Below, one piece after another: positions 3,576 to 29,944 of a DNA stretch of 64,000 nt; position 1 is the stretch's first letter; every line of letters starts with the position of its first letter. The DNA lies in contig CAWHSR010000003.1 of NCBI GenBank assembly GCA_963832015.1, positions 35,717 through 99,716 of the forward strand, in the 5' to 3' direction. The position numbers were made by a program, and so were the translations under genes. The notes below the pieces were generated by a model. The model ran no database searches. It saw only the letters and a list, made by a program, of their open reading frames with translations, and was not told where the DNA came from. This stretch comes from an uncultured Acidobacteriaceae bacterium (GTDB taxonomy: Bacteria > Acidobacteriota > Terriglobia > Terriglobales > Acidobacteriaceae).

Positions 3576-3665
3576 ATTGTTGATTGTTGATTTCTGATTG
3601 CTGATTGTAGGGCGATCGAGCCTGCGGAAGTTCGGTCATCAATCATCAATCATCAATCAACAATT
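3576..3665. repeat. long imperfect inverted repeat with 7-nt periodic arms (YTGATTK / TCAWCAA)
   Basis: attgttgattg (3576-3586) is the perfect complement of caatcaacaat (3654-3664). Left arm: ttgattg ttgattt ctgattg ctgattg. Right arm: tcatcaa x3 then tcaacaa. Lies between the DHH gene stop and the GT39 start. Confidence 0.6.
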
Positions 3666-26868: not shown

Positions 26869-27912
26869 TTGTGTTCGCGCGATGATGAGGAGGCCGTCTT
26901 CAGCAGTAGTGAGGACCGAATCCGGGCTAGCCAGGCCAGTGCGGGAGTGTCAGGGCCTCCTATTGTGTTGCAGAAGACTTCGTCCGGTCTCGGACGAGTC
27001 AGGGTTGATGATGTTGGGGCGGACCCAAGCTGGATTCGCCAAGCTGCCGAAAGTCTCTTCTCCGTTCTGTTTTCTTCCGATTGCCGCCTTTGCGGGGAAT
27101 CTCTTCTGAATATTTCGCGGCTGCCCGCCTGCCCCAATTGCCTGTCTCGCGTTCTCCCGGTCCGCGGCAAGATGTGTTCCATTTGCGGCGAGCGTGTGCT
27201 TTCCTCCTACGCGGAAACCGATCCCGAGGGCCTGCGCCGGTGCCCCGTGTGCCGCCGCATCGACCGTCCATTTGAGCGGGCCGTAGCCTACGGCAGCTAT
27301 GAGGGTGGGCTGCGCGAGTTGATTCACTTGCTCAAGTACAACGGTGTACGCCCCGCCGCCAAGGTCTTGGGACGCATGCTGGCGCAGGCCTGGACCGCAC
27401 TCGAGCCTGATTTTGAGCACGGCATGTTTGAGCGCGGATTGTATGACCAGCAGCCGATCCTGGTCGTCCCGGTGCCCTTGTATAAGTCCAAGCATCGCCA
27501 AAGGGAATTCAATCAGGCGGAACTGATCGCGCGGGAAGCCCTGAAGTCATACGCGGCTCCGGAACGTTTGCAGCTGTCTCTCGACCTCCTGCAGCGTACT
27601 CGCGACACGCACTCGCAGACAGGACTGACCAGCCACCAGCGTCGCGAAAATCTGCGCGGAGCCTTTGCCGTGTCGTGTGCCGACGAAGTCACTGGCCGCG
27701 ACGTGCTTCTCGTGGATGATGTCTGTACGACCGGCACCACCGCGACGGAATGCGCGCGTGTGCTGCGCCGCACCGGAGCCCGCCAGGTATGGGTTGTGAC
27801 GGTAGCGCGCACCCTGAAGTTGGCATCTAAGTACGTGGTGGATGAGCGGGTTGAAGGCGAGGAAGAAGGTTTCAAAGTTTCAGAGTTTCAAGGTTTCAAA
27901 GTCGGGGCCTGA
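26869..27912 (+). CDS. comF: ComF-family protein (double zinc ribbon plus phosphoribosyltransferase domain), start uncertain
   Basis: CRLCG...CPNC...CSICG...CPVC zinc ribbons, and PRTase motif VLLVDDVCTTGTT. Alternative GTG/TTG starts at 26965/26968. The last about 12 codons (GFKVSEFQGFKVGA) are encoded by the periodic repeat. Confidence 0.8.
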   Translation: MCSRDDEEAVFSSSEDRIRASQASAGVSGPPIVLQKTSSGLGRVRVDDVGADPSWIRQAAESLFSVLFSSDCRLCGESLLNISRLPACPNCLSRVLPVRGKMCSICGERVLSSYAETDPEGLRRCPVCRRIDRPFERAVAYGSYEGGLRELIHLLKYNGVRPAAKVLGRMLAQAWTALEPDFEHGMFERGLYDQQPILVVPVPLYKSKHRQREFNQAELIAREALKSYAAPERLQLSLDLLQRTRDTHSQTGLTSHQRRENLRGAFAVSCADEVTGRDVLLVDDVCTTGTTATECARVLRRTGARQVWVVTVARTLKLASKYVVDERVEGEEEGFKVSEFQGFKVGA

Positions 27913-27948
27913 GCTTTGTGTTTTTTAAACCCTGAAACCTTGAAACTT
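27867..27948. repeat. hairpin repeat with 8-nt periodic arms (RGTTTCAR), copy 1
   Basis: Left arm aaggtttcaaagtttcagagtttcaaggtttcaaagt (27867-27902). 15-bp perfect stem 27884-27898 / 27933-27947. The loop contains tttttt. Confidence 0.6.
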
Positions 27949-27959
27949 GGGATGATTTT

Positions 27960-28565
27960 ATGTCACTGAGGATGGAGCATCACGATGCAGGATCCCGGCA
28001 CACCGCCGGCCTGTTCGCGCCGGCGGCCATGCACCGGCCCGGGGACGGCCATGCCTTGCTCGCCCCCGTCCTCGTGCTGAACGCATCCTACGAGCCCATC
28101 AATGTCTGCGCCGCCCGCCGTGCCCTGGTCCTCGTGCTCAAGGGCGTGGCTATGACCGAGGAAGAGAACGGACACTTTCTGCACTCAGCTCGGGTGGCCA
28201 TGCGCTTGCCCTCGGTGATCCGCTTGCTGGAGTACCGGCGCATTCCGCACCAGAGCCGCGCGCTCTCGCGCAAGAACATCCTGCTGCGCGACCGCAACAC
28301 CTGCCAGTATTGCGCCACCGTGCTACCGTCCGGGGAACTCACGCTCGACCACGTGATCCCGCGCTCCCGCGGAGGCTCGTCCACCTGGGAAAATCTGGTC
28401 GCCTGCTGCCACGCCTGCAACCGCCGCAAGGGAAACCAGTCTCCCGTCGAAGCCGGTATGAAGCTGATGCGCGAACCCCGCGCCTTCAACCTGCACACCA
28501 GCCGACACATCATGCGTCTGATGGGACGGTCGGATGATAAGTGGAGAAAGTATCTCTTCTACTAA
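27960..28565 (+). CDS. HNH endonuclease
   Basis: CQYC...[32 protein letters not shown]/zinc-finger core. Confidence 0.85.
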
Positions 28566-28659
28566 GGTTTCAAAGTTTCAGGGTTTCAAGGTTTCAAAGT
28601 GGGAATCGCTCAGTTCCTTTCTGCACATGAGAGCTTGAAACGTTGCGACCTTGAAACCT
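28564..28659. repeat. hairpin repeat with 8-nt periodic arms (RGTTTCAR), copy 2
   Basis: Left arm aaggtttcaaagtttcagggtttcaaggtttcaaagt (28564-28600) starts at the HNH stop codon. Weaker right arm gcttgaaacgttgcgaccttgaaacct (28633-28659). Confidence 0.6.
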
Positions 28660-28669
28660 AGACTCAGCA

Positions 28670-29044
28670 GTGGCTCGCACCTACCGTGAATTGCTGGTCT
28701 GGCAGAAGGCTAAAGCTTTGGCTGTTCATGTCTATCGATCCACTGAACAGTTCCCCAGAAGCGAGACTTACGGACTGACTTCTCAGCTCAGACGGGCTGC
28801 TGTCTCGGTGCCGTCGAATATCGCGGAAGGACAAGGTAGGCTCACCGCCGGTGAGTTCTGGCATTTTCTCGGACAAGCACGCGGCTCTTTGCTGGAGATG
28901 GATACACAGCTCGACATCGCCCTCGATCTGGCGTATCTCAATCCGAACCAGCAGCAGACGCTAGATCAAGACATCTACCAAGTCCTCGGGCTCTTAAACC
29001 GACTGCTCGATGCGGTTCGCCGCAAGCGTTCGGTTCTACCTTGA
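28670..29044 (+). CDS. four-helix-bundle protein (23S rRNA intervening-sequence protein family)
   Basis: 124 aa with a GTG start. YRELLVWQKAKALAVHVY...YGLTSQLRRAAVSVPSNIAEGQGR...F..FL..ARGSL.E is the classic signature of this family. Confidence 0.8.
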   Translation: MARTYRELLVWQKAKALAVHVYRSTEQFPRSETYGLTSQLRRAAVSVPSNIAEGQGRLTAGEFWHFLGQARGSLLEMDTQLDIALDLAYLNPNQQQTLDQDIYQVLGLLNRLLDAVRRKRSVLP

Positions 29045-29074
29045 AACTCTGAAACCTTGAAACTTTGAAACCTT
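29038..29074. repeat. inverted copy of the RGTTTCAR periodic arm, copy 3
   Basis: accttgaaactctgaaaccttgaaactttgaaacctt. Its reverse complement matches 28564-28600 at 33 of 37 positions. It supplies the TGA stop of the four-helix-bundle gene. Confidence 0.6.
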
Positions 29075-29077
29075 GCC

Positions 29078-29944
29078 CTACTGCGGCTTCTTCTGGTCCG
29101 GCGGTTGCTGCTGCGGCGTTTGATCAGGCTTCTGATCGCTCTTCGGAATTTGCTTGCCTTCGAACAGAATCGTGGACTTCGCGCCGAACCGCTTGTAGTC
29201 CTCGTACTTGATGATTTCGCGGATGTGGATGTCTTGCAGCTTGAAGTGTAGTTCGTCGTCGGCTCGTGTGTAGACAGGGAACCAGTACTGTCCGTCAACC
29301 TGCTGTCGCCACGTCGTGAATTTGGGATAAAGATTCTCTTCGTTGCTGTGCTTCTTGTGGATGTCGGGAACACTCTTGCCATAAGTTTTCACGATCTGAA
29401 AATCGTGGTCATCGACCCAGATGCGTCCCTGGAAATAGCGCTTCTTGCCCACAATCTCTTTCGGGGCTATGTCGAAGACATAACAGTGGACTTCATCTTC
29501 CTGCTGCTGGCCCACATAAAGGATGTTGTATTCCGGCAGGTCCGCCTCGGTCAGCACAAACGGCATGCGGTGCCGGATGTCTTCGAAGTCGCCCTGGTCC
29601 ATGGAGAGTCCGCCCTGTTCGAGCGAGGACTGCGGCGCGAACACCACATTCTCGATCCGCTTGCCCTGGTCGTTAAACATCACGTCGTAGACTTCGTGAT
29701 ACTCCCCAGTCACGGTACTGCCATCCAGCGTCTCAACCTTCACGTCCTGCCGGTAGGTGTACTGGTCGCGCGCCTTGGCAAATTCCGTTTCCTTGGCGGC
29801 GAAGCGCTTGATGATCTCCTCGGGGGTGGTGCCGGCCGGGGAAGCGCTGTCTAGCGGGCCTTCCTGCGCGCGGGCGGGACGCCCCGCCAGTCCGCAGGCC
29901 AGCACAGTCAGGCATAGCAGAAAACGAACAAATACTGATTTCAT
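29078..29944 (-). CDS. secreted LolA-like (outer-membrane lipoprotein-sorting-like) protein, hypothetical
   Basis: Signal peptide MKSVFVRFLLCLTVLACGLAG. Beta-rich body with a GRIWVDDHDFQIVK motif. Gln/Pro/Lys-rich tail. Family call from pattern memory only. Confidence 0.55.
   Translation of the reverse strand: MKSVFVRFLLCLTVLACGLAGRPARAQEGPLDSASPAGTTPEEIIKRFAAKETEFAKARDQYTYRQDVKVETLDGSTVTGEYHEVYDVMFNDQGKRIENVVFAPQSSLEQGGLSMDQGDFEDIRHRMPFVLTEADLPEYNILYVGQQQEDEVHCYVFDIAPKEIVGKKRYFQGRIWVDDHDFQIVKTYGKSVPDIHKKHSNEENLYPKFTTWRQQVDGQYWFPVYTRADDELHFKLQDIHIREIIKYEDYKRFGAKSTILFEGKQIPKSDQKPDQTPQQQPPDQKKPQ

Follow-up and report, generated by a model that had tools for sequence, protein, structure and literature searches.

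Partnerships between a gene and a dispersed repeat are known in bacteria from the RAYT genes and their repetitive extragenic palindromic (REP) and REPIN elements, reportedly described by Nunvar in 2010 and by Bertels and Rainey in 2011. Other bacterial repeats are gene-less, as are the cyanobacterial short tandemly repeated repetitive (STRR) heptamers. The protein bAvd, an accessory protein of diversity-generating retroelements (DGRs), forms a basic barrel of five subunits and binds both nucleic acid and a reverse transcriptase. Similar gene-less arrays, consisting of inverted heptamers, are known from Xanthomonas (GGGAATC), Nostoc, and Geobacter metallireducens, where they are intergenic and transcribed (PMC4692102, PMC2700814). 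Intervening sequences (IVSs) of 23S rRNA that bear an open reading frame (ORF) have been proposed to be mobile (PMC4990558), and genes of the PF05635 family have been noted inside cas operons (PMC3936711). For more than 30 years, the functions of the 23S-IVS protein family and of the bacterial heptamer repeats (STRR, GGGAATC) have been a puzzle, and the locus described here, together with its genus, ties both together. We analyzed a stretch of 64,000 nucleotides from an uncultured Acidobacteriaceae bacterium (contig CAWHSR010000003.1, positions 35,717 to 99,716), hereafter the window, in which a module at positions 28564 to 29074 carries a PF05635 four-helix-bundle gene between two inverted arrays of a short repeated word. 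The host genome has 6.0 Mb and 58% G+C, with the window lying in its contig C3, and its nearest public relatives are metagenome-assembled genomes (MAGs) of Terriglobia labelled Acidobacteriaceae or Candidatus Sulfotelmatobacter.

We consider, with a probability of roughly 0.6, that this module is a member of a widespread class of cassettes resembling IVSs, each formed by a PF05635 gene and two inverted arrays of a 7- to 8-nt word, and that it belongs with the dispersed periodic hairpins of its genome in a manner resembling RAYT and REPIN. The class is recurrent and apparently undescribed; in the literature on PF05635, S23, and the IVS protein in connection with repeats, no publication was found that connects the family with periodic arms outside rRNA. 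To this class, the locus contributes an octamer variant and a compound layout, with an internal arm bearing a promoter-like site, as well as a resolved series of filled, inverted, remnant, and empty states and a quantified sharing of words between cassette arms and gene-less hairpins. It amounts to a natural experiment, with one site in four states, three paralogues that each have their own word and gene-less hairpins, and a derived word common to arms and hairpins.

The 510-bp module fills the gap between the stop codon of a gene for an HNH-domain protein and the stop codon of a convergent gene for a LolA-like protein. Its features are the following.

28564 to 28600, forward strand: 5' arm, about 4.6 units of RGTTTCAR
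28601 to 28627, forward strand: 27-nt spacer, the loop of a local hairpin
28628 to 28662, forward strand: internal degenerate 3'-type arm (78% pairing with the 5' arm), which carries the promoter-like site
28635 to 28664, forward strand: sigma-70-like promoter candidate, TTGAAA-18-TAGACT (1 site in 1.5 kb versus 0.3 expected)
28670 to 29044, forward strand: PF05635/TIGR02436 four-helix-bundle gene, 124 aa, with a GTG start at 28670
29038 to 29074, forward strand: 3' arm, about 4.6 units of YTGAAACY, containing the TGA of the gene and ending 3 nt short of the LolA-like stop codon

An inverted-repeat search returned the two arms as 37-nt sequences, complementary at 33/37 positions (89%) and separated by 437 nt. 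The two-unit RGTTTCAR pattern has 11 matches in the window versus 0.03 expected. Since the TAA of the HNH gene occupies 28563 to 28565, the left arm begins within that stop codon, and the TGA of the bundle gene (29042 to 29044) lies within the right arm. The original prediction, made from the letters alone, had described the matching of the arms, the presence of exactly one gene between them, and their use of these two stop codons, and all of this was confirmed. It had overlooked that the left arm also pairs, more weakly (78%), with the nearer array at 28628 to 28662, an internal partner that is kept in orthologous cassettes. Therefore, the layout reads 5' arm, spacer, internal 3'-type arm, gene, and 3' arm. 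The predicted minimum free energy (MFE) fold of positions 28555 to 29085 includes the long-range arm stem (-198.6 kcal/mol, z -5.2), and a predicted fold of -39.7 kcal/mol (z -3.6) was obtained for the local hairpin formed by the left and internal arms.

The association of arms and gene extends to the other members of the family. The host genome contains three PF05635 genes, all of them flanked by inverted periodic arrays and each with a different word, namely RGTTTCAR at the present locus (C3), CGGCTTC (C2:19285-19624), and CTAGCTT (C30:117600-117960, where the paralogue sits between dprA-like and topA-like genes). When a bracket test was applied to the 5,067 long ORFs of the genome, 14 passed, including 2 of the PF05635 genes, and each of the other 12 lies between two complete hairpins. 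The contrast between 3/3 armed PF05635 genes and 12/~5,060 other ORFs is significant (Fisher p 2e-8). The comparison was then made over 228 PF05635 loci, of which 80 came from a species collection and 147 from 60 same-genus genomes, the own copies being added. Inverted periodic arms were present at 184/228 loci, a fraction that describes relatives of the window protein among the matches listed rather than the whole PF05635 family. In these 184 loci, the period of the arms is 7 in 157, 8 in 26, and 9 in 1, with a median of 4.3 units per arm and about 20 different words. Typically, the 3' arm begins at about the stop codon, and the distance from the end of the 5' arm to the start codon has a median of 57 nt. 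The survey of further family genes that the original prediction had called for thus found inverted arms at both other copies, and the pattern it had named as a sign of coincidence, unarmed copies together with arm-free relatives at this locus, was not what we saw, as the paralogues are armed and the relatives with the gene at the same locus keep their arms.

Two further observations were made on such brackets. A divergent PF05635 subfamily (E 1e-11 to 1e-15) has ATTG-type heptamer arms, with the words TGATTGT, GAGTAAT, and GTAATTT (loci L258-L270 and L275, in genomes G015, G008, G013, G046, G066, G068, G076, and G016). The host genome has 15 TGATTGT arrays, for example at 3576 to 3665 of the window, yet no detectable gene of this subfamily. 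Elsewhere in the host genome (C7:3514-4076), a complete CGGCTTC hairpin is followed by an ORF and then by an extra 3' arm, which is the same compound layout; the enclosed ORF, which lies on the opposite strand, encodes a 159-aa HXXEE-like membrane protein (PF13787, E 7e-5, slightly under the cut-off).

Next, we compared the arm words with the relationships of the proteins. In the protein tree, clades correspond to arm words. The clade with the GTTTC core was found in 4 genomic contexts, the AGTGGTC clade in at least 3, and the AGTTCTC and AGTTGCC clades in several each, with contexts defined by 2.2-kb flanks for L001-L080 and checked by eye, flanks of 260 nt being unreliable (many singletons). 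Downstream of one 487-aa gene, there is a cassette of the AGTTTCG clade in locus L042 and one of the AGTGGTC clade in locus L038. Because the word tracks the clade across contexts, and two clades are found at one site, the word follows the gene and not the place. This shows that cassettes of different lineages occupy a single site and that the arms are passed on together with their gene. Within orthologous sites, there is drift in the word (e.g., AGCTTCT, AGCTATC, and AGCTTTT). In 113/123 cases, an arm resembles its partner at the same locus more closely than it resembles arms of orthologous loci, a comparison made on the arms alone and with some bias towards cis, since the cis arms were set by their own best alignment. 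Paralogues in the same genome share a word in 2/144 pairs, compared with 6.5% of between-genome pairs. Single-linkage clustering of the heptamer words at one mismatch placed nearly all of them in one cluster; the words form a continuum, and therefore a per-locus consensus word (lowest rotation) and the tree were used. In one orthologous context (L012-L016 and L062), we also observed a constant GTTTC core with a period that differs between genomes, being 7 (AGTTTCG), 8 (AAGGTTTC), or 9 (GGAGGTTTC).

The gap that holds the module could be followed through the genus, where the order of the comF-like, HNH, and LolA-like genes is conserved. The HNH protein shows 88 to 98% identity across the genus and is single copy in 40/41 relatives. 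The two genes that anchor the synteny are as follows.

27960 to 28565, forward strand: HNH-domain protein (Pfam HNH_5/HNH), the upstream neighbour
29078 to 29944, reverse strand: LolA-like secreted protein, 288 aa, convergent, without a Pfam match

The gap is filled with a GTTTCA-armed gene in six genomes (G000, G019, G009, G014, G017, and G002) and, in a degenerate form, in G010. In G005 (L094), the cassette has the opposite orientation and GTGRCAAR-type arms, and in G003, both arms and the last 38 codons of the bundle gene remain. Some gaps without the gene hold a gene-less periodic hairpin of another word (AGCTGTC or AGTTTCG), and further states are a gene-less hairpin of the same word and no hairpin whatever. 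In a tree built from the three flanking proteins, genomes with filled, inverted, remnant, and empty gaps are intermingled, and three sister pairs consist of one filled and one unfilled genome (G017 versus G016, G014 versus G024, and G002 versus G023). The state of this site has therefore switched repeatedly. In the genomes compared, the cassette at this gap was gained or lost several times, was inverted, and decayed to arms and a stump, and the remnant in G003 shows one route to a gene-less hairpin. A check of presence or absence at this gap had been suggested together with the original prediction, and these states are its outcome. As a separate observation, the gap of G015 (L095) has a gene-less GGTTTCAA hairpin whose loop contains another palindromic element of unrelated sequence (TGTCATCCTGAGCGGCG...CGCTCAGGATGACA).

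The words of the cassettes also occur in hairpins without a gene. About 85 RGTTTCAR arrays are dispersed in the host genome, mostly as tight hairpins in intergenic gaps, including those of ribosomal-protein and mreB operons. The polarity of adjacent pairs is fixed, with the GTTTCA array first in 23 and second in 0, and the loops are mutually unrelated. The words flanking the three PF05635 genes rank among the commonest 7- to 9-nt tandem words of the genome. Over 61 genus genomes, GTTTCA matches are bimodal: the 42 genomes without a GTTTCA-armed gene or remnant have a median of 2, compared with 53 (minimum 10) in the 19 that have one (Mann-Whitney p 1e-7). Within the three sister pairs, we counted 40, 45, and 53 matches in the filled members versus 12, 2, and 2 in the unfilled ones. 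For CAGTTCT, at least 19 matches were found in 8/8 genomes with a CAGTTCT-armed gene. Arrays of GTGRCAAR are confined to 4 genomes, exactly those in which the arms of the cassette next to the HNH gene consist of that word (4/4 versus 0/57, p 2e-6), and in one of them, G045, this word forms a dozen gene-less hairpins.

One gene-less hairpin lies immediately upstream of the HNH gene.

27868 to 27950, no strand assigned: gene-less RGTTTCAR hairpin, a satellite of the same repeat family, between the comF-like and HNH genes, with its 5' arm inside the comF-like ORF and the stop codon in its loop

The loop of this hairpin contains a terminator-like stem and a T-run at 27903 to 27918. The comF-like ORF (26869 to 27950) runs through the 5' arm, its tail being ...EEEGFKVSEFQGFKVGA, and stops in the loop. 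In congeners without the hairpin, the C-terminal tail of the comF-like protein is different and longer, and the hairpin therefore replaced the end of the coding sequence. Similarly, two CGGCTTC-type hairpins were seen within one long open frame at C52:107386-107773, with the repeats reading as ...GFRLPASG.../...KPRAGSRKP... in translation, and periodic arrays can therefore sit within coding sequence. Long arms were observed at locus L156 (G064:C55), with 22 perfect CAGTTCT units per arm that form a 155-nt perfect inverted repeat. CAGTTCT arrays are long at many G064 loci, so array length looks like a genome-wide trait. The perfect 22-unit arms, together with long arrays across the genome, point to DNA-level copying between arms.

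The relation of the arms to transcription was then considered. On the sense strand, the arm mismatches of 76 loci comprise 112 G·U and 101 A·C pairs, and there is no wobble bias. Selection on a sense-RNA stem, which would predict more G·U than A·C mismatches, is not supported by these counts. The promoter-like site at 28635 to 28664 ends 5 nt before the GTG and is the only such site in 1.5 kb, and a TANNNT box 5 to 6 nt before the start codon is kept in 8/8 cassettes at the HNH/LolA-like site. Transcription from this site, which follows the left arm, would give the gene an mRNA with the right arm only. From the candidate promoter, the mRNA of the bundle gene is probably leaderless or near-leaderless.

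The encoded protein is a clear member of its family. The ORF at 28670 to 29044 matches PF05635 with an E value of 3.3e-36 (124.2 bits versus a cut-off of 33.8, profile positions 1 to 105 of 106) and TIGR02436 with an E value of 1.8e-33 (115 bits versus a cut-off of 24). PF05635 is its sole domain in Pfam, with no sign of a Y1 HUH transposase. Its score against the Avd model NF033474, 23.9 bits versus a cut-off of 80, places it outside the Avd proteins of DGRs. Comparison with orthologues gave dN/dS values of 0.08 to 0.16, which shows that the gene is under purifying selection. In three orthologous cassettes (L082, L083, and L089, in G019, G009, and G017), the gene was seen to be broken across two frames, which could reflect either decay or indel errors of long-read MAGs. 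By sequence, the protein also matches XCC0516 (PDB 2GSC) with an E value of 2.6e-26 over residues 3 to 120. That PDB entry holds 5 chains, and XCC0516 has been termed a homopentamer (PMC4990558).

Taken as a cassette, the module would be the gene-bearing member of its hairpin family, as a RAYT gene is among REPINs. The bundle gene would be transcribed from the promoter in the internal arm, and the complementarity of the arms might be maintained in the DNA itself, through template switching or conversion from one arm to the other, and not through selection for a stem in RNA. From these patterns, we infer how the arms spread and what the protein does. Several points weigh against this account. 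Since the arms have a median of 4.3 units, we imagine a pentameric protein that could bind the periodic arms with about one unit per subunit, which is conjecture. To our knowledge, the PF05635 family has no known catalytic activity, and no nuclease, recombinase, or reverse transcriptase was found linked to the cassette. Among the cassettes compared at the HNH/LolA-like gap, no target-site duplication or direct repeat was detected at the ends, and the combination of target-site duplication and shared internal sequence that marks a miniature inverted-repeat transposable element or another transposon with terminal inverted repeats was not seen. Because their loops are unrelated, the gene-less hairpins are not simple copies of a master element. 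Array-rich genomes without a cognate armed gene exist (at least 5 for GTTTCA and 16 for CAGTTCT), so hairpins persist without the gene, and a strict prediction that hairpins need the gene failed. Furthermore, the genus-level associations are only partly corrected for phylogeny, by way of the three sister pairs, and the relatives' loci, being those among the matches listed, come from MAGs. The high armed fraction may be peculiar to Terriglobia.

Other explanations of the arrangement were weighed against the cassette. A dense population of intergenic hairpins could make a gene look bracketed by chance, and 12 ordinary genes, including the HNH gene, tsf, rpsB, rpsD, and mreB, do pass the bracket test; we rejected this explanation as almost certainly wrong in view of the contrast within the own genome (3/3 versus 12/~5,060, p 2e-8) and the recurrence of the layout in 184/228 relatives with about 20 words. 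It is also very unlikely that the gene is a rider, merely inserted into the loop or arm of resident hairpins (terminators or REP-like elements), so that the arms belong to the site. Unfilled copies of the same gap do carry gene-less hairpins, many genomes are array-rich without the cognate gene, gene-less hairpins occur in housekeeping operons (e.g., rpsK-rpsD-rpoA, tsf-rpsB, and mreB), and the compound layout looks like that of a complete hairpin whose 3' arm has received an insertion. What disfavours the rider, one of the options left by the original prediction, is that the word goes with the protein clade rather than with the site, over at least 4 contexts and with two clades each keeping their own word at one site; moreover, paralogues of the same genome nearly never share a word (2/144 pairs), and even the divergent PF05635 subfamily has its own ATTG-type arms. 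By the same evidence of armed paralogues and of same-locus relatives that keep their arms, the proposal that genes of this family travel with long stems of the periodic repeat is strongly supported. That part of the original interpretation stands, and RNA excision, its other part, is not supported as the main role.

In that scheme, analogous to the rRNA IVSs, a read-through transcript from the HNH gene would form the 37-bp stem, RNase III would cut it, and the loop would be excised or the transcript processed. The stem is indeed present in the predicted MFE fold (z -5.2), and in Coxiella, a gene of the same family lies in a 28-bp stem with GACAGAT heptamers that RNase III cuts in vitro (PMC4990558). 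We nevertheless regard it as unlikely, because G·U mismatches show no excess over A·C (112 versus 101, 76 loci), the candidate promoter and TANNNT box lie downstream of the 5' arm, and the element is identical on both strands and found in either orientation at the site (L094). A domesticated host regulator, in which the protein would bind hairpins genome-wide in termination, mRNA stability, or the nucleoid, with its own arms serving for autoregulation, would require nothing mobile, and turnover would be ordinary deletion and recombination. Strong purifying selection, one gene per word per genome, hairpins in the intergenic gaps of core operons, and terminator-like elements inside some hairpin loops all fit such a role, as does the annotation of paired heptamer sites in Geobacter as global regulator sites (PMC2700814). 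However, this explanation, which we hold to be improbable, leaves unexplained the occurrence of different lineages at one site, the inverted copy, one lineage at several sites, and a derived word found at many dispersed loci together with cassette arms.

The cassette reading could be widened. Tentatively, PF05635 proteins might be the trans-acting partners of an unrecognised class of replicators, hairpins with arms of 7- to 8-nt words that would include the STRR, Xanthomonas GGGAATC, and Geobacter heptamers, with each protein lineage reading its own word, perhaps at one unit for each subunit of the pentamer, and helping inverted arrays to form or persist at new sites, 23S rRNA helices among them. 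If true, this would account for the IVSs of rRNA as well as for the excess of heptamers long noted in bacteria, and the strict polarity and unrelated loops would mean that the arms are built in place, around the local sequence, and not transposed whole.

Among described systems, the 23S rRNA IVSs of Coxiella burnetii (S23p) and Leptospira come nearest to the cassette, in that a small gene of the same family sits in the loop of a terminal-repeat stem of about 28 to 37 bp, and the Coxiella stem, like that of the cassette, contains tandem short repeats, there GACAGAT heptamers (PMC4990558). The locus shares with an IVS the long stem around a single S23p-family ORF, without the insertion into a 23S rRNA helix (25 or 45), and no rRNA or other credible Rfam match was found in 27700 to 29300. 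Unlike an IVS, the cassette stands between two convergent protein genes, has an octamer unit and its own promoter-like site, and shares its word with dozens of gene-less hairpins. In addition, the bundle gene is under purifying selection here, whereas the Coxiella IVS gene is decaying. The protein belongs to the same fold family as bAvd. In contrast to the bAvd gene, its neighbours are the comF-like, HNH, and LolA-like genes, with no adjacent reverse transcriptase, template, or variable repeat. The arrays of Xanthomonas, Nostoc, and Geobacter are similar to the arms, as they consist of 3 to 5 units of a 7-nt word, with 4 units preferred, and often form convergent pairs at variable distance; no associated gene family is named for them (PMC4692102, PMC2700814), whereas the arrays described here are tied to PF05635 and, at this locus, have an 8-nt unit. 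With REPIN/RAYT, which it most resembles in behaviour, the cassette has in common a gene in single copy between inverted repeats of its own family and many gene-less intergenic palindromes. Further points of likeness are that one genome holds several gene/repeat families of differing sequence and that gene and repeat co-occur across genomes. The cassette lacks the features by which that system is defined: the protein is a four-helix bundle without a known catalytic motif and not a Y1 (IS200/IS605-type) transposase, and the repeats are variable-length periodic arrays with unrelated loops where REPINs are conserved REP doublets. Hairpin families without a cognate gene are also common here, unlike in REPIN/RAYT. 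If the link between PF05635 proteins and their repeat words holds, it would represent a new kind of gene/repeat partnership beside RAYT/REPIN.

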